Below, one piece after another: positions 3,234 through 43,200 of a DNA stretch of 64,000 nt. The stretch is taken from assembly GCA_040954595.2 (NCBI GenBank), contig CM082587.2, positions 9,491,403 to 9,555,402 on the forward strand. The letters run 5' to 3'. The DNA comes from Balanoglossus misakiensis. Its lineage: Eukaryota > Animalia > Hemichordata. Below the pieces are notes generated by a model that was not told the DNA's origin, did no database searches, and saw nothing but the letters and a program-made list of their open reading frames with translations. The translations under genes and the position numbers were made by a program. Position 1 is the first letter of the stretch. Every line of letters begins with the position of its first letter.

Positions 3234-4386
3234 AGTGGAACGACACCCCACAATTTTGGGCTTCAAAGTACAAACCGGGTGTCAAAAACGGCAACGTTCC
3301 GATGGGTTAATTCACTTTCACTTCCTGCGCAAGCAGAAGACACGAGTTGAAAATACTACAGTGACGTCAGCAACTTGCGTTGCAGTCGAAGCGCAGTGCT
3401 CTTACACGTTCGACGTGTCATTTCCAATAAACAGACACATTTTGCGCGGATCTGACATTGCGAAATGTCAAGTTCATGATTTTAAAAACATATTCGGAAA
3501 ATCGACGGGGATAAGTTTCTTTCAAAGGCAATGCTCTACGTGTATTGTAAATGTCGATGCGTGCAGACATAGACCCTGCAATGTCCACGATGCCATGCAT
3601 GTCGACGTTTATGAACAAACCATAAGGCCTATACAAAGTTGTTCTAACTGCCGCTGATAATAATAAACGTACCGTTTTAAATCCTTCCTGCACGTTTTTT
3701 GATACACGTATTTGGGTTTAATTTCCATTTATTGACGATCGCATAGTTATCAAATGAAAGCAACTAAAAAGGGCAGTTTTAATACATTTCAAGAGACGAA
3801 ACATGCATAGAATAACTATGGTATTTGGTTCCATTATACTACGGACGTACTACACCTGGAGAGCAGGACGATGCACCTGCGTTCTTTTCAACTCCATAAA
3901 AGGTGACAAAGTATTTTTGTAAGAAAAGTGGTTCGAAAAGGTGACAACGAGGGAGCATTGTCTGTTTCACCATAGACCCTAGGGTCTATGGTTTCACTGA
4001 AACCACACCAAGTGTAAGCCTTGACAAACGGGACACATCGGAGATCAGAACTGCATGAACTTTTGTCCTCTGTAAAATTCAGTCGCTTGGTCGTAGAAGG
4101 GAATCTCTGGTTCAAAATTGTAGCCTACTACCCGAGAATATGTTGCCATGCTAACGTCGTCGGTCACGTGAGTGCAGGCGTGTATAAGCATAAGCTCGCT
4201 CCAACGCGTCGGCAGCGGACAACGGTACCACAAGTTGCTGACGTCACTCACTTCCGGGTTCGCGCAGTTTTTGGCTGGCTGTAGCTCTGTTATGCGTAAG
4301 TGAAAGTGAATGAAACCAACGTTTTTCATAGTACTTTTTAATCGCATTTCGCAGAATGGCTCAAAAACGGATCACAACGTTCCACT
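3234..4386. mobile_element. Non-autonomous Kolobok-type DNA transposon, copy 1
   Basis: TTAA flanks (3230-3233, 4387-4390); termini AGTGGAACG...CGTTCCACT; near-identical inverted copy at 25165-26309. Confidence 0.85.
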
Positions 4387-6409: not shown

Positions 6410-8199
6410 GTGAGTCTCTCTACATTAATAAGGAAAATATTGTATCATCAGTTGTGCTCATTTACTTGTGCAATTAAATGGGGGGGGGGGTGTAGCTTAT
6501 TATTAGGTCCCATTTGGTTATGTAATATACCATGGGACCTTATGGAATCAGTTGCGTCTGTATGTATGGATGGATGTATGTCAGTATGTCCGTCCACATC
6601 AAAAACTTGAAAACCGTTGCGTGTATATATATTTGGCGTGTAGATGCATGCTGGGCTGTAGATGGGAGTTTAATTTGTTCAAACAAAGTTGTCATTGCCA
6701 AAATATGCAAATTAGCTTGAAAAATGTGTACCTTATGTCAACCTTAAACAGTCATGTATGTTTTGAGCTAATATTATCGATTTTCAATTTTTTATGCATA
6801 TTTTTTTGTCTTTTTTCACATCTTTGATAAAAAATCTTCTTTTCTGGAATTGATCAGCTGACTTCTTTGACATTTAGTATGAAGCTTCATATATGTGATC
6901 TGAGTTACCATAGTTTAAATATTTGCAAAATTTGCATATTTACAATTTTTATCTTTTTGGATAAATTTTTCCCCCTCTAAAACCGCTTGTCAGATTGCAT
7001 TGAAATTTGGTAGGCATGTTCCTAGGGGTACCCAAGTAAGATTTGCATGTATGTTTTTCAAATCAACTTGAAGAATTCAATACTATATTTTTGGGTGATA
7101 TTTGGTCAAAACTCTTTCTCAGAACCCTCAACCCCATTGCTTTGAAATTTGATAGAACTTCCTGTGGTTGTGACACTAATCACACAGTCTTGCTAATTCT
7201 GTAAACGCCCTCAAGTGGTAATACTAGATTTTGGTAAGTAGCAGAGAACATTCGAACCTCTAGGCGGCTGCACTTTTGAAATAAAGGGCCTTACCCCCCC
7301 AAAATTGCAACAAGAGGTTTCTCAACGGTTTTCTGTAGTATTTAATTTCCTTAATAACATATAAAAAATCTACCCAAAATCCAATGGCCGGAAATGTGTA
7401 ATTTTTAAGGTTTTACCCAAGATGGCCGCCGTATACGTAATTTTCCATATTTTAGTATATTTTAGTTTTCTTGTTTTTGAAATATATTGTATATCAATGA
7501 CTTTTTAATACAATTATAGAGAAAAATTGGGTGTTCCTATACAACTTTTTTCAATAAGATGGTATAAAACTTTGTGAACAATGCTGAGTCAGCACTTTTC
7601 TGGCACACCTCATGCTACAGTTTTCCTATGCTGAAAATATCTGAACAGATATCTCAAAATGAAGCATGATGACATACTATGTTCTTTTCATCATTTAAAT
7701 AACACTTCAAAAAGAAAATGACAATATTAAAACGCTGTTTTCTCAAAATTGTACATCTTATAAGGCAATGGAATATGAAAATCATGCACTATATTTGAGT
7801 ATTCCCCTGCCTTAAATACTTAATTGTTCATCCTAGATCAGTTGATTAATCATAAAGGAATATGATACAGTTAGTATATGACTCTGCATTGTAATAATTG
7901 CCAACACTTTTCCATGGCAAGCAATAAAACGGGACCACCGTCAATGACATTGTGATCACTTGGTAGGATAGAATCTATGGCACACTTGTTTGATTCTTTT
8001 TTGAAAATTCAGCTTCTGCATTTGTTAATTGGGGCTTGTTGGTTTTCCAAAATATTTCTTTTACTTTAAATAGAGCTGTGGAGCATATACTGACCTCATA
8101 AATCAGTAAATTTTAGAAAGAAGGGTTTCCAGTTATCGACAAAACTGGAGCAGATTCTATGGTTTGGTCATGGGCTAATATGACAGAACTCCATGACCT

Positions 8200-8581
8200 T
8201 AGTCTAGAATCTATCCGTTCGTAGTCGCATTCACCCTACTACCGTCTAGGAACGCATAACCAAAATCTAGTAAGGCCATAAAAATGGTAATTTGAATGTG
8301 AATAGTCTCCAACTGAGCAGTCTGACGTCAGAGAAGTCAATCACTTACGTTGACCGACTACTGATTGGCCAATTAGGTGATGACGTTGAATGTTAATTAT
8401 GTTTACAATGTAGCTCCGCCCCGAATGATACATAATCATGATCACGCGCTTGATGTCAGACTGCTCAGTTGGAGACTATTCACATTCAAATTACCATTTT
8501 TATGGCCTTACTAGATTTTGGTTATGCGTTCCTAGACGGTAGTAGGGTGAATGCGACTACGAACGGATAGATTCTAGACTA
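8200..8581. mobile_element. hAT-like MITE with ~125-bp TIRs
   Basis: TAGTCTAGAATCTATCCG...CGGATAGATTCTAGACTA; 8-bp TSD CATGACCT at 8192-8199 and 8582-8589. Confidence 0.9.
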
Positions 8582-9114
8582 CATGACCTCAGCCCTCGAG
8601 CTGTGCCGTCCATATGTTATTTTCATGAGTGATGCGGTTGTATCCTGCGGCCGTACTTTCGCGAGCGCAGCGAGCGAAAGTACAGCAGGATACAACCGTA
8701 TCACGAGTGAAAATAACATATGGACGGCACAGCTCGAGGGCTGAGGTCATGGAGTTCTGTTATTATTACATATGTTCTAAAAATCACCACATTTTGAACG
8801 TAACTGGAGAGCCATTTCACTGCGGATTGATATCTTATTACTAAGATTATTATAATTAGCTACCATCTTTTGAGCTCTGTGATTGGTTTAAGTTTTTGAC
8901 TCTATTCATATGCAAATTACACCATCGCTTACCTAAGAACGCCACTCATTCATAGATAGCACTCACACAAACATGTATAATACTCAAAACAAACGATTTA
9001 ATCAATTCAACACACTAAAACTTGTAAATACGATAACATTAAAACGTTTTTTTGAAGCTGAAAAATTGAAAGTCAAATAGTAGGATCGGAAAGATGCACG
9101 AAATTCGCGGAAGT

Positions 9115-10671
9115 TTAGTCAGAATCAGAGTCCGAGTATAACATGGTTGGTCGTCGGCGTTTTGCTGAAGGAGTAGAACTGCCTCCAGCTCCGATGTTGA
9201 ACGTGAAGTTGAAAACCCCACCGGTGATTTGGGTGTTGGAAAATAACCCTGGCAATTGATTTTGGACTTGCTGGCTACACAATTGCAAGGAGCGCGATGA
9301 GGATGATGCGGAACTAACAAGGTCGCGGTTTTCAGGAGCCGGTGGTCGATCGCTCGCGTTGGTGGCTGAGAACGGTACGAGGGTTTTGGATGTGCTCGGT
9401 CGTGGATCGAATGTGTTGTCAATTCCACTCAGGATGTTACTCATTTTTCGTTGTTGATCTTCGTTTGCGACAGCATATCTATTCAAGCTGGCTGGATTTT
9501 TATGGCAGCTGAGCTGGGCTGCTGTATTAGGTGGTACACCGGCATCTAATAAACGTTGAACACATGCTTTCCGAGCACTGTGATTGCTGAGCTTGTCGGA
9601 GATACCAGCGGCTGTTGCCATCGATTTCATTATGGTGTTTAATTTATTTACACCCATAGGCTGCCTGCGAAACCATATGCCCTTACTGAGAGTGGCCGAC
9701 ACATACTCTATTCCCAGGTAGAATGGAGCATCGTTGGTTTTCATGTCTTCCGGCCTCCGTTCAGCGTAGGCCTTGTAAACACGCACCGGACAGGTCGAAT
9801 CTTTCGACGGAGTTGCATAGGCCTTTGGGGAGAATTTTCGTGTGTTGCCGGGTTCCCCACGTCTGGTTTTTGTTAGACGCTCATTGTAGATGAGATATTC
9901 CCCATTTTCGTCTGTCGCTGTTGTTACATCTCCCCATTTCATTTGTCTATGTTCATTGCTTCCTCTAAGGCCGAACAACTTGGTGTTATTAAGCCAGATC
10001 GTGTTAAGGATCGCGTTGGGTGTATGGGTGCCGAGCTGTCCGGCTTTAATCAGCGTCGCTTCATGGTCTTCCGTGATGGCATTTGATTTTTTGGGCAGAT
10101 TACCCTTCCCTCCAGCTTTCAATTGCTTTCTTTTGGCAGCCAGGGCTTCACGGCTTCTTTGAAATTGGTCATCGCGAATTATACTCACGCCGTAGTTGGC
10201 ATCACGCAAGTACCGGTCGATTGACTTCTGGTAACTTGATACGGAATCAGGCTCATATTCATCGCCGTTCTGTTTTCTCACGCTCAGGAAAAATCTGGCG
10301 AGCAAGGGGTCAAGTTCGGCAGGTGGAATAAGCTCCAGCTTACGAGTTTCTGTTGTCATCGTCTGTTGCCAGTGTTCAAAAATACCAACTTCCCGACGCG
10401 TTTTCATGGCGGTTTTCTTGTTTTTTTGCAACCCGATTAGAGCGCTGACGTCTTCGGTCGAGACCGCAGCAAATCTCCCGGACGCTGGCCGAGAAGTAGA
10501 CGGTTCTACGGGCGTAGAGCTCGCCGGCATCGCTTCCATCGCAGTCGCTATTTCTCGCTCTACCGGTGCCGAAACATCGCTTTCACTCGGATAATAAAAT
10601 TCAGAATCCAAATGTTCAAAATAAATACAGTTCCGCCGATCGTAATAGTTGTTTTCCTCCATAAAATACAC
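9115..10671 (-). CDS. Crypton-type tyrosine recombinase (DUF3504-like, ZMYM/KCTD1/QRICH1-related), 518 aa, uninterrupted
   Basis: RK.NG.EYEPDS, FGLRGSNEH (catalytic R), KTRRG (K), CPV, PFYL, WF.RQPMG.NKL, NHSAR (HxxR), CHKN (H), NRYA (Y). Confidence 0.9.
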   Translation of the reverse strand: MYFMEENNYYDRRNCIYFEHLDSEFYYPSESDVSAPVEREIATAMEAMPASSTPVEPSTSRPASGRFAAVSTEDVSALIGLQKNKKTAMKTRREVGIFEHWQQTMTTETRKLELIPPAELDPLLARFFLSVRKQNGDEYEPDSVSSYQKSIDRYLRDANYGVSIIRDDQFQRSREALAAKRKQLKAGGKGNLPKKSNAITEDHEATLIKAGQLGTHTPNAILNTIWLNNTKLFGLRGSNEHRQMKWGDVTTATDENGEYLIYNERLTKTRRGEPGNTRKFSPKAYATPSKDSTCPVRVYKAYAERRPEDMKTNDAPFYLGIEYVSATLSKGIWFRRQPMGVNKLNTIMKSMATAAGISDKLSNHSARKACVQRLLDAGVPPNTAAQLSCHKNPASLNRYAVANEDQQRKMSNILSGIDNTFDPRPSTSKTLVPFSATNASDRPPAPENRDLVSSASSSSRSLQLCSQQVQNQLPGLFSNTQITGGVFNFTFNIGAGGSSTPSAKRRRPTMLYSDSDSD

Positions 10672-11265
10672 CGTATCAAGTTCGAGCTGTTACTAATCAC
10701 CAGCAGACGACAATATTTACAAACAGAAAATAGTACCAGACTTATTTGCATAATTTTGCGTGAAATAATTTCTTAACAATGGTTTTCTATGTAAACATTA
10801 TTTCATGGCACGTGACCTTCACGTGACATGTTTTGAAATATATCTTCATTCTAAATACACCATAAAACACGTATATGGTTGTAAAAAATAGTGAAATGTT
10901 TGACATACAGTTAGAACAGCTGAATCCAGATCGATTTGCTTGGAATGGTCTCACATCTGACATGATGTTTTAAAGAAAATGCAAAATAAAATGGGGACTA
11001 TTTTATTTCATTAGTATTTAACATCTGTGAGAATACCAACTTTATTTCGCTGCTGTCAGATAGGTAATCTGTAATACATATGTAATAATTTGATAGTAAA
11101 CCCATCTGTAATAAGTTTTTGCAGGCCTTTTCCTTCGAATGCGATCCTAAAAAATAGGTTTTCCAACCACTCTTTTAGTGATCTCACTCCCAACAATGAT
11201 CTGTGCGAGCAGACGATGGGTTATCATATTCCATACCATTGTATGAATATCCATATTTCTATATG

Positions 11266-12792
11266 CAGTCGGCCCGATCGCCAAAAAAGGAAATCTCATG
11301 AATATTTAAATTTGGTGTCAGAGGTAACTTTTCGGCCAATCAGATCGCTCGAGACAATCAGTTCCAGAGAAAATTCGCATGCCCTCGGTTTTAGTTCTGT
11401 TAAATGAAGTCAAATTCGCCTAAATACTCAAATTTTTGCCTGAGGATTCCTTGAAAGGTGCTCTAGCGATCTACCGATGCGTTTTGAAATCGACCGTTGC
11501 GTTTTTTAGCGACAGATGATAATTTCTGCCATGCCCAAGTCCCCACTGTCAACAACGGCGATGATGGCTATTCTTGTATGCTTCCGGGTTTTAGTCCGGA
11601 GTTTTACAAATGAAGTTCAATTAAATAAAATCTACGTCGCCTAAATGCCCAGGATTTTGTCCGAGGATACATTGATACACGCTCTAGCTATCTACCGATG
11701 TGTTTTGAAATCGACCGTTGCGTTTTTTAGCGATAGCTGATAATTTCTGCCATGCCTACGTTCTCGATCTCACTGTCGACAACGGCGATGATGGCTATTC
11801 TTGTATGCTTCTGAAGTTTTAGTGCGGGGTCTTAGTTCAATTAAATAAAATCTAGGTCGCCTAAACGCTCAGGATTTTGTCCGAGGACACATTGATACAC
11901 GCTCTAGCGATCTACCGTTGCGTTTTGCAATCGACCGTTGCGTTTTGTAGCGACAACTGATAATTTCTGCCATGCCCTCACTATATACACAAGGAGCTAT
12001 ATACACAACGGCAATGATAACAATCTTGTGCGTGAGCTAGGCCGTGGCTCAGTCACTCGCGATCCGAAAGTTTCATGATTTTTTTTATTCACAATCACCA
12101 ATTACCGTAAATGATAGAAAGGGTCGAATTCACAAAATATGACGATTACCTCATGAATGTGCGGTGTCAACTTGGAAACTGTTAGCAACTTTGCCAAACG
12201 TAAATTACAACATACGCGCCGCGCAATAGCTCACAACACCGCTCATGCACGCTCACAGTCACCGTACAGAGTATACTACGAGTATCGCTGTTGCCCCTGT
12301 ATCAGTTGCGTCTTTATACCATACATGTAGCTGATATAGTCCGACTAGCACAAGTATGGATCGTTATACTGCCCTGCTCTTCACTTTAAATCAACTTGGG
12401 TTTTAAATACGGCCGCACTGACACTGGATAGTGAGGCCCAAAGTTTACTGGAAGCATTTACCGAGTCATCGTCGGCTCGCACGGGTTGTTGGATCAACCA
12501 AAGTTTCCCTAACGAACCCATGCGGGAACCGCTATATAAAAAACATCGTCCACGGTCAAAGGATTTGTTCTGCCAAGGTCTATTTTTCGGATACCAAGAG
12601 CTTGGCGGGCGGAGAGGTTACCTAGTATAAATGCAAGACAGCCTCAGGATGTCAGTGTTAGCAAAAGGCACTGGCCTTGTTGACATTCCTTCGCGCGTGT
12701 CATTTGTGCATATTTCTGATTGGGCGAAACGTTACCTTTGACACAAATTTAAATATTCATGAGATTTCCTTTTTTGGCGATCGGGCCGACTG
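11266..12792. mobile_element. Non-autonomous TIR DNA transposon with 5-bp TSD, superfamily unassigned
   Basis: ~60-bp TIR CAGTCGGCCCGATCGCCAAAAAAGGAAATCTCATG...; TSD ATATG (11261-11265, 12793-12797); three internal ~220-bp tandem units at ~11400-11980. Confidence 0.85.
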
Positions 12793-17603: not shown

Positions 17604-19702
17604 TATGGAAAGCCACAGCTGTCTTAAGTCCATTGTTACCATTATACGCTGCCCATACATCATTATACGACGCTGATGCATCATTATACGCTGCTCGTAC
17701 ATCATTATACAATGCGCATACATTAGTATACAATGTGTATACAACATTATACATTGGTCGTACTTCATTATACGACGCTCATACATCATTATACGCTGCT
17801 CGTACATCATTATACAATGTGCATACATCATTATACGATGTGCATACAACATTATATGCTGGTCGTACATCGTTATACAACTCTCATACATCACTATACA
17901 ATGTGCGATCATTATACGCTGTGCATACATCATAATACGCTGCCCATACATCATTATACGACGCTTATACATCATTATACGCTGCCTGTGCATCATTATA
18001 CGCTGTTTGTGCATCTTTATACGCTGCTTGTGCATCTTTATACGCTGCTTGTGCATCGTTATACGCTGTGCATACATCATTATACGTCGCTCATTCACCA
18101 TGATAGTATGCCTGTTCAACATACGGCGCGCGTTCGGCTTTATACTATGCAGACATGTCATTATACTATGCTATTACTAACCGCAATTCCGTCAAAGAGG
18201 GCGTAACATACACATGACGATACTGAAGTAAGACTCGGATTCGGTTTCGGTCTCGGTCTCGGATTCGGATTCGGTTTCAGGAGACTGAAAGTAGTTAAGC
18301 ATTTTCGGGCGACCATCGCGGTTTGGCATCTGCAGTACGAGTATGAAAATAAGTTTTTATAACTCTGTAAAAATATGAATATATTTGATCAAACTCTCTC
18401 GACATGTTATGTATGATATCTTTGGCACCAAATCACTGTTTTTTCACATCGGAAATTGTTAAATACATATTTTATCATCGAAAAACGTACTTCGATGATA
18501 AAAAGATAATATTTTGTTATTTTCGGCTTGAATAAACATTTTTTTGGTGAGAAAAATGTCATCCATAACAAGTACAGATTAAATTAAAGCTGCAAGCAGC
18601 CTTTGCGGGGCACAAGCGGTTCCCATGGTAACCAGCATATGCCAAGGCTGTATCTGCTGTGGATACCAAGATATGGGAAAGTAAGTCAAAGGTCACCTGA
18701 GGTCACCCCATATTTGGGCTAAAATATTGGACCTCATACTAGTCTGGGTCCAACAAAAACCAGACCCTATTGGTTCGCCTATAATTAGGTATGCACATAA
18801 ATAATGAGTTAAGCACATGTCACAGGTGACCCAAAACGTTGGCTTTTCATTATGGCACCATACCTCCAAACGTCAAGGCTGTATCTGCTTTGGATACCGA
18901 GATATGCAAAAGTAGGTCAAAGGTCATCTGAGGTCAGCCAAAATTTGGGCGAAAATTGTGGCCCCATACTAATCCATGTCCAAAACCTTTAGCTCTATTA
19001 ATTCACCTGTAATTAGGTATGCGCATATTTAATGTGGTCAGCAGAGGTCAAGGGGTCCTGAAAAGTAGCAAAATATTTTGATCACATACAAATTCACCTG
19101 CATCAAAAACCAAACTTCTAGCCCTATAAGTTAGCCTGGAATTGGATATGCAGAAAAAAAAACGATGTGTCAAAAGTAGGTCAAAGGTCATTGCCAAAAT
19201 TACCAAAATATTTGGGGTAGGTCCTGGCAGGGAGAATACCCATGTGCACAAAAATCAGAACTCCGGTACATTTAGAACATGTAGTATAAGCTATATATGC
19301 ATACATCATGTATATGCAGGTTCTTAAAAAAGTAGGTCAAAGGTCATCACACGCCCTCTTTGACGGAATTGCGGTTAGTAATAGCATAGTATAATGACAT
19401 GTCTGCATAGTATAAAGCCAAACGCGCGTCGTATGTTGAACGGGCATAGTATCATGGTGAATGAGCGACGTATAATGATGTATGCACAGCGTATAATGAT
19501 GTATGCACATTGTATAAAGATGTATGAGCGTCGTATAATGATGTATGGGCAATGTATAATGATGTATTCACAGCGTATAACGATGCACAAGCAGCGTATA
19601 ATGATGTATACACATTGTATAAAGATGTATGAGCGTCGTATAATGATGTATGGGCATCATATAATGGTAACAATGGACTTAAGACAGCTGTGGCTTTCCA
19701 TA
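17604..19702. mobile_element. IS3EU-like fold-back element whose long TIRs contain a ~21-bp minisatellite
   Basis: Termini TATGGAAAGCC...GGCTTTCCATA; 6-bp TSD CATACA (17598-17603, 19703-19708); arms 17604-18204 and 19350-19702 are inverted copies. Confidence 0.8.
18581..19345 (-). mobile_element. Truncated Helentron-type element (family B) inside the IS3EU-like element
   Basis: Reverse complement of the family-B 3' end GCTGCTTGCAGCTTTAATTT at 18581; body similar to 32180-32850. Confidence 0.6.
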
Positions 19703-24881: not shown

Positions 24882-25161
24882 ATTATATTATACCAGTATA
24901 TTTGATTGTTCGAGACACGACACGTGACCGTGATATATTAGCCATATACCACAGTCACATATCATAGTCAAAGAAAATGCCTTTTTAAAATGTTTTATGC
25001 AAAGTTTCAATATACTGGCATAATATAATAGCAATAAAACACCCCCAGCCATGGTATACCACTCGATTTTGACCAGTTCAACTCCATATACGCACTCGCT
25101 ATCGCTCGTGTGTATATGTCGTAATCTTGTGGTATACCATGGCTGGGGGTGTTTTATTGCT
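24882..25161 (+). mobile_element. Small non-autonomous Crypton-like hairpin element in the KIF21 3' UTR
   Basis: IR 24882-24902 / 25009-25029 followed directly by hairpin 25030-25161 with central motif CTCGCTATCGCTCG. Confidence 0.6.
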
Positions 25162-25164
25162 TAA

Positions 25165-26309
25165 AGTGGAACGTTGTGATCCGTTTTTGAGCCGAAATGC
25201 GATTAAAAAGTACTATGAAAAACGTTGGTTTCATTCACTTTCACTTACGCATAACAGAGCTACAGCCAGCCAAAAACTGCGCGAACCCGGAAGTGAGTGA
25301 CGTCAGCAACTTGTGGTACCGTTGTCCGCTGCCGACGCGTTGGAGCGAGCTTATGCTTATACACGCCTGCACTCACGAGACCGACGACGTTAGCATGGCA
25401 ACATATTCTCGGGTAGTAGGCTACAATTTTGAACCAGAGATTCCCTTCTACGACCAAGCGACTGAATTTTACAGAGGACAAAAGTTCATGCAGTTCTGAT
25501 CTCCGATGTGTCCCGTTTGTCAAGGCTTACACTTGGTGTAGTTTCAGTGAAACCATAGACCCTAGGGTCTATGGTGAAACAGACAATGCTCCCTCGTTGT
25601 CACCTTTTCGAACCATTTTTCTTACAAAAATACTTTGTCACCTTTTATGGAGTTGAAAAGAACGCAGGTGCATCGTCCTGCTCTCCAGGTGTAGTACGTC
25701 CGTAGTATAATGGAACCAAATACCATAGTTATTCTATGCATGTTTCGTCTCTTGAAATGTATTAAAACTGCCCTTTTCAGTTGCTTTCATTTGATAACTA
25801 TGCGATCGTCAATAAATGGAAATTAAACCCAAATACGTGTACCAAAAAACGTGCAGGAAGGATTTAAAACGGTACGTTTATTATTATCAGCGGCAGTTAG
25901 AACAACTTTGTATAGGCCTTACGGTTTGTTCATAAACGTCGACATGCATGGCATCGTGGACATTGCAGGCTCTATGTCTGCACGCATCGACAAATACAAT
26001 ACACGAAGAGCATTGCCTTTGAAAGAAACTTATCCCCGTCGATTTTCCGAATATGTTTTTAAAATCATGAACTTGACATTTCGCCATGTCAGATCCGCGT
26101 AAAATGTGTCTGTTTATTGGAAATGACACGTCAAACGTGTAAGAGCGCTGCGCGTCGACTGCAACGCAAGTTGCTGACGTCACTGTAGTATTTTCAACTA
26201 GTGTCTTCTGCTTGCGCAGGAAGTGAAAGTGAATTAACCCATCGGAACGTTCACGTTTTTGACACCCGGTTTGTACTTTGAAGCCCAAAATTGTGGGTGT
26301 CGTTCCACT
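25165..26309. mobile_element. Non-autonomous Kolobok-type DNA transposon, copy 2 (inverted relative to 3234-4386)
   Basis: TTAA flanks (25161-25164, 26310-26313); mirror-image ORF track. Confidence 0.85.
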
Positions 26310-28561: not shown

Positions 28562-30389
28562 TTAACTTACAGTATGTTAGTTACACACACGAATCGCAAG
28601 GGTTCACCACATTTAGCTAATCCTAGAAACATACACAATTTGTGTTGGGTATTTACAGATGAATAATCGTCTAGCCAGCTAACTACATACGAGTTCTGTT
28701 GTTACAGTGAACTAGTAAGTGTAGAGGACAGTGAGAGGCTGATCACTCTGACGGCTTCGACGCTCGATTCCGGACTGTGTTATTTATACAGACTGCCTTC
28801 AACCGTGTGTGATGGCGGAAAAATCGCGATAGCAACACAGCCGTAACACGCGGCCGACTTGGCTAGCTCGTGACGGGCGGTACAATTTTCCTACCCAACT
28901 TGAGAGGGGTTCTTCTGCCCAAAATATATGTACATCAAACTTGAGCCCGCCGGTCATCAGGTTTACTGATCACAGAGTCACAGTGTTTGCTGTTGAAGTA
29001 GTAATGACAAGTAGATGAGTTGAATTCTGGGTAGATCATTCCATTAACTTATGTAAAAATTGGCAACATCACTAAAAAATGCATGGATATTTAACATATG
29101 TCAAATACAGACATGAGTGGACATTGAAAAATGAAATTCCTATAATCTTTCCAGGTTTTGTAATATTAAGCTTGTATGTAAACATTACATTGCTATTCAT
29201 AAACAAAATATGAGGCCCAGTGCATCTCACATCGTTGACTCGGTGATCGGCGCGACGGTTCGCTGCGCGCGAGAGCGACATACGGGGCATAGGACTCTAG
29301 TGGAGAAGGGTGATGTAAAATTCGGTAATTAGAAGCTGTAATGAAGTTTTCAAAGCTTGCGGTTTTGTCATGTTGAATGTATCATTTTTACTTCTTCGAA
29401 ATTCTCAATGCAAAATAATTGTAAATATGATATTTTGAAAGAGAACGTTGACAATTTTATTTAGAATGCGGATGTGCCCATCGTAATGAAAGCTGCCACC
29501 CCCCTTAGAATAGTACTAGGGCCTACACGTTGATCACCTGATCGCATCGCCCTGTCTCACTTGGCTATGGGCTATATTGCCGTGATCCCAAACAGCCTGG
29601 TTCAAATTTCTAGCCGTAAATTGTTGTTGTTTTTTCGGCGCATTTTCGCAAATCGTACTGTTTATAGGTAGGCATTATGATAAAGGGGTTATTACACGAC
29701 GTTTGGTCGATAACGCGACGCATTCTCGAATATGACGCGTTATCGACCAAACTTCGTGTAATAACCCCTAAATATCTGTGATATGACGTGATGTGATAAA
29801 ATATATAAATACCGGGAAACTTTTCCAGATCATTATTTGGGCGATACCATTTTGTGGTAGGTTTCACCATAGACCCTAGAGAAAGAGGACGCGCAACTGC
29901 AGCAAAGATCAAAGGGTTTGGGGATTATCAGTATGACAATGTTCTTTTGCATATAATTAACACCTAGGACGGTGGCATGCGTGAATCTCTGCCCGACAGT
30001 AACCAAAACTGGCACTCCTATATTTCAGCAGCCACTGCGTTTTTTTCTAAAATTCAAAAAGTATTACGTTTTCTGTGCTATTTATTATGGTTTGGTGTTC
30101 GTCTGTCGGTTGAACGGTCATTTCTAGTGCCACAGGCTTCATTTAAAAATTGTAAACAAATCATCCATGTTTTTTGCATGTCCGACTGGGCACTCATACT
30201 TCTTGGTAATGCTGACACTTTTCGTAATAATTTTATGTTTGCGTGAAGCATTGAAACAAAAATTGTGGTTTAGGGGTATTTTATTTCGCAGTGCGTGAAC
30301 AATGAAACAGATTTCACGAAAACAATTTGTAAACAAATTAAACTTTATGGATTTTCACGTGTGCGCTATGGCCGCCATCTTGGTTTCTC

Positions 30390-38313: not shown

Positions 38314-39801
38314 TAAATGAAACATATGAAGAGAGGCCTATCTTGATTTGACACAAACTTGCAGCCCCCCCCCCTGCCATAAAAACTGAACGGTCCCTAA
38401 ATGAAACATATGAAGAGAGGCCTATCTTGATTAAACACATAAATCTGATATTTTATCATATTATGTAACTCAATATTTTACACTTGACGTATTTTACCAA
38501 TAACGCAATGTTTCCGCGAACCCGTCAGGAGCAACTTTAGCAGAATACATTTCCATGATTTACGTTACATGGTCTTAATTCGGGAGACATTTCTCAATAA
38601 AATCAAAAGTCACAGTTCATATTTTTATAGAACGGTCCAATTTGTCGAGTGCGCAGTGACAAGCCATGCATCGTGCATAGACCACTAAGCGGATAGGGTA
38701 TCTGCAATGCATGATTGTATAATTTGCGTTCAACAGTGCATGGCTAACGCACGCGCTCAGAACGCAAACTGTCCCACAACACCCTGCGTTATGCTATCCG
38801 CGAAGTGGTCCATGGCAGTGACAACAATTCCTATAGAGCAGTTAAGAAATAAACCGGCCGGCCGTAAATTCATTGGCTGTATTTTTTGTATTTATTTGAT
38901 TTGAAAGGTCGCGTTTTCCCTGTTGCATGCTATTAGTGCAGGGCCAGTTTCAGCAGTGCTCTATTGAGTACTTTCGTATCGATGGATTGAGCTCTCGTCC
39001 AATCAGAATGGCGGATGGTAGCATGATCTGACATATTGCGTATTGCAATAGGCCTTCCCCAGATAGGTCAGAACGGAGAGGTCATTCCCCTCAGCTTCTT
39101 TGTCTTTTCTATTATTTTTTGACAAATGCGGATTGACGTTCCATTTCTACATGGCCAGGACTGATATTTATTTACGTTTCATAGCGTAAGCGCTTGCTAT
39201 TCGTTTCGCAATTGGTTTCGTAGTACAAACAAATTGAAGAAGACGAAATATATTATCTATGTCCCTAATGAGATAATCGGTTACATAATCGCACTTCCAA
39301 AGAACGCCGTGACAGAATTCATCAGTTGGCGAGGCGCATTCTCCACCCGCACACAAACGTTGCACTGCATACTTTGACTAATTAGTATGCGAAAGCAAGA
39401 TTCTGATTGAGTAGTAACTAATTTGCATAATTAACGAGCAGGTGCTGCCTCGTTCTCGTACCACTGACCGTTGCATTTGAAAAATCATTGCAGCTTCGAC
39501 GTTCATCAAGCATGGAGGTCCCGGTCGCCTCCATGCTTGATGATATCGTTTCTCTGGTAAGCATGGCATTTACTGTAATTTTACAAGTACATGTACACTC
39601 CTTCTTGCAAAAACTGGTAGTGGTAGGGCGACAGTGTCTTCCCAACATCGAAATTCTGACTTTGGGAAGCGTTACAGCGCCGAACAGTAAACTCACAGTC
39701 GCATGGAATTTATGCGTTGTTTTACACCGTGCGAGTAAATTGTACGTCGTTCGTTGGCTGGAGTCAGCTTTGTCATTGTGGGGCAGGTGGTACCGTTACA
39801 C

Positions 39802-40220
39802 CACAGGGGGCTCTCCCTCCGCGATTTTATTGTTTGTTTGTTTGTTTGTTGTTGTTGTTGATTGGCATAATAAACAAATACATATTTCTTTGTCAATAAA
39901 TATGGTTTGTTGACATGTAAGGGTTAGGTTATTAGGGTATATTTGACAGGTTATGGTATATTCAACGGTTAGGATGAGTGTTGGCATTTTTGTGATCCAC
40001 GGCCAGCATCACCCTCTCTTTGTGGCTTAGTGATGCCCCGGGCCGTGGATGGAAAAAAGTGCCAACACTAATGCTAACCGTTGAATATTCCCTAACACTT
40101 ACATGTCAACAAACCATATTTATTAAAAAAGAAATATGTATTTGTTTATAATGCCAATCATCATCAACAACAACAAACAAACAAACAAACAATAAAATCG
40201 CGGAGGGAGAGCCCCCTGTG
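39802..40220. mobile_element. Fold-back (almost fully palindromic) P-like MITE
   Basis: CACAGGGGGCTCTCCCTCCGCG...CGCGGAGGGAGAGCCCCCTGTG with ~200-bp arms; imperfect 7-bp TSD GTTACAC/GTAACAC. Confidence 0.75.
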
Positions 40221-43200
40221 GTAACACACTACAGTATAACTTTTAAGGCAAAGCGATAGCGAATAAACTGACCAGAATTAGTTTTGTTGTTGGGGAGATT
40301 TTTGGCACCATCGAGACTGTTATAAGCTACCAGTGTCAGCTATGACATAGCTGTTAACACGCAGCCCTGCCAGGCAGAGCTACTATGACTGGTTACTAAC
40401 TTCTTATGTCTATTTGATTCACAGATGCTGCCTGAAACTGTCTGCGTTTCAACTCGAGATTCTCTTCCTCGTCCGAGGCGAGTTTAAGACCGCTCAATGG
40501 TAAGCATGACTTGCTATATATTTGCTTTTATCACGCGTTGCAAACGGTACAATAGGAAGCAGTGTATGTCTACGAACTAATTTACACATTCCAGCTTTTA
40601 ATACTTGTTTTTTCCCCTTCGAATTCTAGCCTTGATTGCCTGTGATATGGTAGTGATGACATGAATTAAATGGACAACTCACATGTTCAAATCTTCACAT
40701 GGAGCATAAAATAAATTTGGATGCATTTCCTTAACCATATAGCTAAAATTACTCCCATACCAATACACAGGGAGATACTGTAGCTTTGGCTGAACATGCG
40801 CTAGTCCAACACCATGCTTAATCAAACTGGCTAAGAGATCTATTATCATATTAGACGCATGAAGGACAGTAATGTTGTTTAAAGTGACATAAAACAATAA
40901 TTTAGGCCAGAAAGAAAAATGTAAATTATGACACAAACAGGCTGGATATTTTTTCTGACCCTATATTATACCATGTTTTGCATATTTTCACTATTAAGTA
41001 TTGCCCACATAATTCTAAAGCATGGTTGATTGGTTACTTATTAATATACATATATTTGATTCACAGTCTTAAACACAGCATTTCAACGTATGCCGGAGGA
41101 GGGAGAGAATACCTAGGCCTGATCCAAGACCGCTTTCCGGTAAGCGCAACTTGCTGTATACATGCTCCATAGCTTGTTTGTAAAGGCTACCTTTTCCCAT
41201 CAAACAGTGAAGTCGCCCTTTCAAAATTATGGTGGTGGCAAGCCACAACTGGTTATCATGGAGAGTTGGACACCACTAATATTCATTTGAATATTCTCCA
41301 CTTGGTAACCTTTATGTACCACTATCCTCAACAATTTCAGTCAACAAGATTTATATTTCGCTGTATAGCAAGGCCGAACAAATATGACTGATTGATAGGG
41401 ATTTATCTGAAAATATGACAAAATCAACAAATACAAATACAGAATAATAAGTCACCAAACATGTATCATGTTTTATTCTAGGGAACCTGAGCAGGGTCCC
41501 CTAAACCTGCCAACCCATGCTAGCCATGACTTTACAAATGTTTCCGTCATACTATGCAGAAAATTCTGGCGGCCAATAGGTTTTCACTTTGCCCTAGGGG
41601 GTCAAATCTCATTGCATTCTGGGCGAAAAGTTCACAACCAACTGTAGTAAGAGATAGAAGAAATGATATGTTTACTGTATTTCATGACTTCCTTTGGTCA
41701 AACATGTCTGTCTCTGTAGTCAGCATATTAAACCCATTAAACTGTTTTTCACATTTTGTTATTTTTTTCTGTTAAAAAGTTCCAGAATGACCTATCATCA
41801 CTTTAGCTTATTAACTCCCATTTCTTTAACATGGCAAAAATCGGCCATCTTGAAATTGTCGACCATATAAGATTTTCATCACTCACTTAGGGTAGCTTAA
41901 AACGTATTTCAGGGGAGAATTGTATAGGCATGACTTGGGCTATAAATTTGATGAAATAGCTACATGGCTATTGTTCACAAGCAGCTGACTGTACTGAAAC
42001 ACTGGAAGTGTTGTGTACTTATTTTACATATTCAATATTTGTAATTAGACCATGTCATGTATACATGTATCTTGGGGATTGCTCGATCGCAATGTCTCTG
42101 CTGGTACAATGTCCTTTTATCATGTAATATGGAAGTAATTGTAAGTGTGTGTGGCATTTGTAAATTATTTACAATTTATAAATTATTTCTAAGTTTCTTC
42201 ATTCTCAAATTGCTTGCCCAACTGCATTAAAATTTTGGTATGATTTTGAGTAAGCTTTCTGTTTCAAAATTATTTTCTACACTTTTTGAAATTTTTTGGT
42301 AAAATGATTTTCCATGGAAAATCTGATTTCCCTGTAATTCGGTTGACAGGATTTTCACCAGATCTCTAAATCATGAAGTACATGTATCAGAATTGCATCG
42401 CCCCCCCCCCAAAAAAAAGAAACAAATTTTAGTCACCCTTGGCATGTAATATTAGCCATTGATCTGGGAAAGTTACAAAAATGTGTTGTCCAAGCACGTT
42501 GAAGGTACAAGTGGTTTTTACACTAGCTATGAAGGCATTTTATTAAAATTATTAGGTCCCGTTTGGTATATGTATTTATACCATGGGACCTTACAGGATC
42601 AGTTGCACCTGTATGTATGGATGTCTGTATGGATGTTTGTCTGTATGTCCATCAACATCAAACATTTGGAAACTACTGGCGTGTGACCTTGATATTTAGT
42701 GTGGAGATGCAGGCAGGGCAGTAGGTGGGAGTTTGTCTAAATGAAGTTGTCATTGCCAAAATATGCAAATGAGCTGGGAAAGTGTCAAATTTGTCAAAAC
42801 TCAGGAACTCAAAAACTACTGGGTAAATTGCTTTAAAAATTGAAATTTGATATGCATGTACCTTATGGTAACCTCACACAGCCCTATATGTTGTCAGCTT
42901 ATGTGAATTTCCAATGTTTATGCATTTTTTGTCTCCACATTATCGGTAAAAAATCTACTTTTCTGGAATTGATCAGCTGACTTGTTTGAAATTTAGTATG
43001 AAGCTTCGCAGGTGATCTGAGTTACCATAGTTTTGATTAAAGTGTTAAATTTGTGTATTTTAATTTTGTAGCAATTTTTAGGTCCCATGGCATTTGGTTT
43101 GTGTATATATATATGTACGATTGGGACCTTATGGAATGACTTGCATCTGTATGTATGGATGAACGGATGAAAACTGCTGCGCATATCACTTCCATATTTA

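Follow-up and report, generated by a model that had tools for sequence, protein, structure and literature searches.

The movement of Cryptons, DNA transposons with a tyrosine recombinase (YR), has been described since 2003 by a model that rests on analogy, and the ends of the animal group have been reported as undefined. In the survey by Kojima and Jurka (2011; PMC3212892), no terminal repeats were found in animal Cryptons and all eight CryptonA rows read "n.d.", and the fungal Glomhoppers (2026; PMC13465315) are described as having repeats that are variable, poorly conserved or undetectable. Salmon Cryptons and human Eulor5/6 share terminal similarity according to Kojima (2018), in which the words "hairpin" and "palindrom" are absent. 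A folded single-strand route of recombination has been shown for bacterial integrons, not for Cryptons. Database notes on some Eulor repeats reportedly mention hairpins. Here we describe an element of 2.9 kb, or about 2.5 kb when a nested miniature inverted-repeat transposable element (MITE) is left out, in a 64,000-nt stretch of the genome of the hemichordate Balanoglossus misakiensis (GCA_040954595.2, contig CM082587.2, positions 9,491,403 to 9,555,402 of the forward strand; hereafter the window, from the first letter of which positions are counted). Judged by its sequence, it is a CryptonA-type (DUF3504) YR DNA transposon, an assignment made because of the DUF3504 match and the domain layout, not by comparison with named Repbase sequences. 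We show its ends, its core, an internal mirror copy of its joined ends with an offset of 2 nt, and the recurrence of these features in relatives. This kind of element is itself known; as for its end architecture, a literature search, with Repbase Reports, Dfam and subscription reviews outside its scope, found no published description of this layout in CryptonA.

The ends were defined by an empty site. In a 458-bp contig from public sequencing runs, position 8175 is joined to position 11086, with 2910 bases skipped and four letters fitting either side, and the element spans 8176/8180 to 11085/11089, either set of coordinates being acceptable because the 4-bp core is ambiguous. The original prediction had placed the element at 8175 to 11089; the right end stands, whereas 8175 is the last base of the flank. 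The TAAT core is present once in the empty site and twice in the filled site, as judged from this one empty site, and it agrees with the short (4–6 bp) direct terminal repeat of Cryptons, with no target-site duplication (TSD) of variable sequence. Compared with the window, the flanks in the contig have 21 differing letters out of 286 and 12 out of about 160, so that the contig comes from a different allele or a paralogous locus and gives no date for the insertion. The copies and the empty site were taken from contigs of two runs of one sample, and no RNA data set was among the matches listed. Two of these contigs continue beyond 11089 into different flanks, and two others carry left-end–like sequence free of the MITE; filled and empty sites and divergent copies are thus all present, as in a mobile CryptonA. 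Reads covered the open reading frame (ORF) about 3.5 times as deeply as the filled-junction contig (178 against 53 and 586 against 150), which is a rough hint of a few element copies, depth being no copy number. An Rfam search of 8000–11500 gave no match.

At the end downstream of the ORF, the element closes with a long hairpin, which terminates at the element boundary and lacks a separate TSD. With the MITE left out, there are 84 Watson–Crick pairs within 188 nt, so that the near-perfect hairpin of about 200 bp in the original prediction is real, but is about 190 nt long with a stem of about 87 bp and not a 200-bp stem. It had also been proposed that the hairpin becomes apparent only after removal of the MITE, which proved incorrect, as the 71-bp arms are already visible and the removal adds just the outer 20 bp. 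The MITE itself was found as predicted, with exact terminal inverted repeats (TIRs) and a TSD, the length of which makes hAT-like a candidate label; it is inserted into the terminal stem, 12 bp inside the end of the element, and its read depth is very high (tens of thousands versus about 150 at the unique junction). As for the other end, the 14-bp repeat at 11076–11089 is, as predicted, the exact reverse complement of 8762–8775, and the match extends to 27 nt at 81%. When the two ends are joined via the core, the resulting 47-nt junction is 2 nt longer than its reverse complement at 8744–8788, and the 2-nt gap sits on the hairpin side of the core. Because 8744–8788 mirrors the end-to-end junction, the subterminal 14-bp repeat and the outer stem of the hairpin make up the two halves of one feature. 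The proposals that the element has defined cis ends and that the repeat and the hairpin form one recombination-related structure are both supported by the empty site and by distant relatives, although the nature of the internal segment as a mirror copy had been missed. Neither of the conditions that had been named as refuting the prediction was borne out, since relatives possess the ends and the hairpin is without a TSD.

The reading frame, on the minus strand at 9115–10689, is unbroken as predicted, but its product is 515 amino acids (aa) long from the first ATG (10662) or 524 aa from stop to stop, and not 518 aa. It matched DUF3504 (E 5e-27) and Phage_integrase (1e-10), with QRICH1 below the cut-off; these were the only three Pfam families, every one in the YR part, and there was no GCR1_C or CryptonS C-terminal domain. 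The DUF3504 match, the catalytic residues and the empty site bear out the predicted Crypton identity. By the ORF list and Pfam, the element contains no second ORF of more than 120 aa, and hence no reverse transcriptase (RT), DDE or HUH enzyme; gag, RNase H and RepHel ORFs were likewise absent. The catalytic positions that had been said to be retained (R233, K265, H361, R364, H387 and Y396) are all present. In an alignment that took in 33 of the 52 homologues found, K265, R364, H387 and Y396 were invariant, and R233 and H361 were conserved in 31 of 33. Residue 386, next to H387, is Cys in the window copy (codon 9505–9507), whereas it is Gly in 33/33 aligned homologues and in 67/71 loci (Glu in the other four), and the contigs of both runs that cover this codon carry a Gly codon (position 9507). 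A stop at codon 403 was found in one contig type. The suggestion of a potentially active element is weaker for the window copy, with its Gly386Cys change and the MITE in its terminal stem; this copy may itself be crippled, in which case a sister copy would have to act in trans. Among named proteins, the closest come from acorn worms (69% and 74% identity), and the predicted structure (mean predicted local distance difference test score, 76.6) matched QRICH1 and Cre best. Two CACGTG boxes were also noted upstream of the ORF (10820–10825 and 10809–10814), and one more near the 5' end of a gene-less element at 24882.

To describe the layout in relatives, 84 loci with related recombinases were gathered, the first set being the best 80 of 178. 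The sequence downstream was too short for the hairpin test in 55 of the 84, and in 20 of the 29 tested a long inverted repeat was present 150–1300 nt past the catalytic core, compared with 3/60 random window segments and 2/15 distal flanks; two of the 20 (L002 and L072) are perhaps other repeats. The relatives that share the end layout have a protein identity of 30–52%. An inverted-match test was then applied with hand-set hairpin coordinates, one of each near-identical pair and 300 shuffles, which replaced a swapped-upstream control that related elements had confounded. In the window element and in 9/21 loci, the hairpin-proximal segment gave an inverted match to the region upstream of the ORF (p<0.01), and the controls gave 0/22 in direct orientation and 0/18 for distal segments. 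Furthermore, in the register of the stem, the NTA of the terminal arm lay 2 nt further out than the internal TTA in 13/22 hairpins and was in register in 1/22; by eye, the +2 offset fits 18/22, the others being L008, L018, L028 and L015, the last of which has lost its internal arm. The window stem had nothing in common with 19 other stems except the apex (best local score ≤13). As for the flanks of relatives, inspection by eye indicated a fixed TTA at the 5' end and a variable NTA (TTA, ATA or GTA) after the 3' end.

The relatives were also informative on single arrangements. In locus L039, a gene-less derivative (2252–2724) lies head to tail after the 3' end of a coding copy, with a junction of the predicted form. 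Within one group of ORFs at 90% identity, L007, L024, L033, L057 and L063 have one hairpin module and L059, L015 and L028 another, so that the 3' module has apparently been exchanged between families. The arrangement in L039 may suggest, as a separate observation, that element ends themselves serve as targets. No relatives of the element were found in viral contigs. Three unrelated contigs of a viral collection (L085, L086 and L087; near 2501–2523) have the exact apex motif of the relatives' hairpins, with the rest of the element absent, and three CryptonA-type loci (L081, L082 and L083) are in contigs filed as metagenomic bacterial genomes, which are probably misbinned animal DNA.

The stems carry further signals. 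Of the mismatches counted in 24 stems (260 in all), 161 belong to the A-G/C-T class and only 61 are transitions, and the A-G mismatches mostly form tandem pairs on one strand per hairpin. Tandem G-A pairs stabilise folded DNA. A GNA mini-hairpin is present at 15/24 apices; such a mini-hairpin is described as an unusually stable single-strand fold that is found at some phage single-strand origins (PMC13037366). The mismatch and apex motifs could alternatively be quasi-palindromic binding sites in duplex DNA.

Compared with the closest described systems, the window element departs from the description of CryptonA as lacking terminal repeats, a negative report that is not diagnostic, by its asymmetric inverted repeat and hairpin. 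Like CryptonA and the Glomhoppers, as the latter are described (PMC13465315), it has a single DUF3504-type recombinase with R-H-R-Y, no C-terminal GCR1 domain, a length of about 2.5 kb when the MITE is left out, marine-invertebrate relatives and gene-less derivatives, whereas the 4-bp core, the long terminal hairpin and the internal mirror copy of the junction set it apart. In DIRS elements, both outer ends are likewise repeated in inverted form, side by side, within one end, and integration is by a YR (PMC7192593), but the window element has no gag, RT or RNase H, its copy is inexact with the 2-nt gap, and its arms form one hairpin and not repeats that resemble long terminal repeats. Integron attC and CTX attP share with it an imperfect palindrome that can fold into a site, unpaired bases near the core and a target of 3–4 nt (PMC5027507, PMC4792948), in contrast to which the window element is eukaryotic and self-encoding, would build its site from both ends and an internal copy, and has a predicted fold nearer to Cre than to IntI. 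Helitron2/Helentron elements also have one terminal repeat with a subterminal partner directly upstream of a 3' hairpin (PMC3627910); there, however, the enzyme is RepHel and the hairpin lies within 20–30 bp, whereas the Crypton hairpins are 110–190 nt long and reach the last base.

Based on this layout, we favor, at a probability of roughly one half, the reading that the recombinase acts on a folded single-strand site and exchanges one strand as at integron attC. Simultaneous pairing of the internal mirror copy with the two ends would produce a short double-stranded site with a 2-nt bulge beside the TAAT core. When the element is single-stranded, for example as a replication template, the hairpin could fold and the far end anneal alongside it, so that both ends meet; one strand exchange at the core would then release a single-strand circle, and replication would restore the donor duplex (copy-out). 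The folded junction of the circle could be exchanged once with a double-stranded target, in which only N-T-A would be required next to the cut, and the bulge would block a second exchange and leave the junction to be resolved by replication. In attC, unpaired bases are described as setting the choice of strand and blocking the second exchange, with replication resolving the junction, and CTX phage uses a comparable folded-strand route by XerC with no special domain (PMC5027507, PMC4792948). The pattern of 5' TTA and 3' NTA in the flanks of relatives agrees with cleavage of the non-coding strand immediately 3' of TAA. The mirror copy is read as a pairing partner because it tracks both ends through full turnover of the sequence and yet keeps the 2-nt offset. 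A wider proposal, that animal CryptonA are copy-out single-strand transposons with a Cre-like recombinase, a folded site, a one-strand exchange and a G-A–studded apex that serves as a single-strand signal for priming or protection, is tentative and in our estimate falls somewhat short of even odds.

Several results weigh against the folded-strand reading. Neither a circle nor a single strand nor any activity was observed, and the predicted fold scores higher against Cre (template-modelling score, 0.69–0.76 of target) than against the integron integrase 2a3v (0.55). The contig matches listed include no circle junction, which carries no weight as evidence because the listing is incomplete. The loci are partly non-independent, as 28 sequences make up 15 groups at 90% identity; moreover, 9/29 loci have no hairpin and the inverted-match test failed in 12/21. 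The tally of offsets has AT-rich side peaks (+1, 6; +4, 7; and −2, 9 of 22), and the internal site was wrongly picked in two of the 13 cases at +2. Among the 24 stems, folding energy showed no strand preference, the non-coding strand being more stable in 13, and a strand bias of G-T versus A-C was absent (27 versus 34, p=0.44). The apex motif falls on the non-coding strand in 9/24 stems and on the coding strand in 6/24, with opposite orientations in the close relatives L021 and L080 and likewise in L059 and L005. The use of the apex as a marker of one fixed strand was dropped, given its varying orientation and the lack of a bias in energy or G-T.

Among the other explanations, the least improbable, although still unlikely in our view, is the classical Crypton model, in which two exchanges across the 4-bp core yield a double-stranded circle, with the internal copy and the hairpin acting as accessory sites for binding or as a cruciform that aids synapsis. 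It agrees with the direct 4-bp core, as Goodwin et al. proposed (cited in PMC3212892), with the predicted Cre-like fold of the recombinase and with the free orientation of the apex, and Starships are described as forming a circle with recombinase-dependent integration (bioRxiv 10.64898/2026.09.21.753150). It does not account, however, for an internal copy that follows the two ends at a constant offset of 2 nt in unrelated sequences, and the variable letters after the 3' end (TTA, ATA, GTA) fit poorly with a double exchange that depends on homology. Clearly less probable is a splint of the DIRS kind, in which the ends of a linear single-strand intermediate would be restored and ligated by means of the internal copy, before the strand is made double-stranded and integrated by the recombinase. 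The layout resembles the internal complementary region of DIRS, with both outer ends side by side, which is essential for DIRS-1, but that region is described as exactly complementary (PMC7192593). Here the 2-nt gap and nearby mismatches persist, which counts against a splint because templated repair would erase them, and the element has no RT ORF.

A further explanation treats the junction and the internal copy as a pair of inverted sites in a double-stranded circle, with inversion between them driving amplification. In the model for the yeast 2-micron plasmid, FLP-driven inversion amplifies the plasmid, and in the present element, too, both copies would lie inverted on a circle and hairpin interiors are found in both orientations. 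We regard this explanation as quite improbable: after inversion at the core, the 2 extra nt would be found internally, but the flipped L005, L080 and L063 keep them on the terminal arm, and no replication origin was identified in the element. It is most improbable of all that the hairpin is an independent MITE or a Helentron end, or that the ORF belongs to a domesticated host gene of the KIAA1958-like kind. The labels of the best database hits ("KIAA1958-like") speak for a host gene, and the asymmetric inverted repeats of Helitron2 upstream of a 3' hairpin (PMC3627910) for a Helentron. On the other hand, the empty site lacks the ORF and the hairpin together, the hairpin has no TSD, and the layout accompanies the recombinase ORF across distant relatives, which carry such ends; there is no RepHel ORF, and the catalytic residues are kept at a locus with an empty site, unlike in the domesticated DUF3504 genes (KIAA1958, ZMYM, QRICH1 and KCTD1).

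The window contains a second, gene-less element of the same design and of unrelated sequence (Table 1). Over its length of about 285 bp, the inverted match had p=0.003, its apex is a mini-hairpin with a four-base loop, and it is likely to have been mobilised in trans. A TTAA-flanked TIR element (25165–26309) interrupts this gene-less element, being inserted at its extreme end, and is 98% identical to 3234–4386; both are copies of a 1.15-kb element with TTAA flanks that we take to be Kolobok- or piggyBac-like. The copy at 3234–4386 was considered as a hairpin-less Crypton derivative and was rejected on being recognized as this TIR element. For the palindrome at 29684–29769, an inverted partner was sought 1.5 kb to either side and none was found. 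Further long palindromes are present at 39800–40222 (an ordinary-looking MITE) and 18402–18573, and to the right of the CryptonA-type element, at 11393–12020, there is a tandem unit of 220–227 bp in three copies.

Table 1. Positions in the window of the features of the CryptonA-type element and of the second, gene-less element.
Feature	Position	Strand	Remarks
TAAT 4-bp core, hairpin end	8176–8179	+	Single copy in empty site
Outer arm of terminal hairpin (element end downstream of ORF)	8180–8199	+	2 extra nt versus internal copy; left MITE TSD, 8192–8199
Nested 382-bp MITE	8200–8581		127-bp exact TIR; 8-bp TSD
Remainder of long hairpin	8582–8763	+	Right TSD copy, 8582–8589; arms, 8578–8648 and 8685–8755; tandem G-A mismatches on + strand
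Apex mini-hairpin GCGCAGC (GCGNAGC type)	8665–8671	+	Non-coding strand; motif as described in PMC13037366
Internal mirror copy of end-to-end junction	8744–8788	−	40/45 letters, one 2-nt gap; includes 14-bp partner 8762–8775
ORF, 515 aa, DUF3504/YR	9115–10662	−	R233, K265, H361, R364, H387, Y396; Cys386
Element end upstream of ORF	11063–11085	+	Inverted partner of 8762–8788
TAAT core, second copy	11086–11089	+	Empty-site contig
Second gene-less element, same design, unrelated sequence	24882–25164	+	5' end, 24882; mirror copy just before hairpin 25030–25160; same core (ATTA)

This study provides, from a coding copy and an empty site, the exact ends, the core and a candidate substrate of a CryptonA-type element, and tests of the mechanism are therefore possible with oligonucleotides and a single protein. 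Gene-less hairpin repeats in animal genomes can also be classified by this layout, and a eukaryotic recombinase that is structure-specific and has a target requirement of 3–4 nt would be a potential tool. If the wider single-strand proposal is true, it would represent the first integron-like recombination in eukaryotes, and it would provide a structural link between Cryptons and the internal complementary region of DIRS and identify the substrate ancestral to the domesticated DUF3504 proteins.

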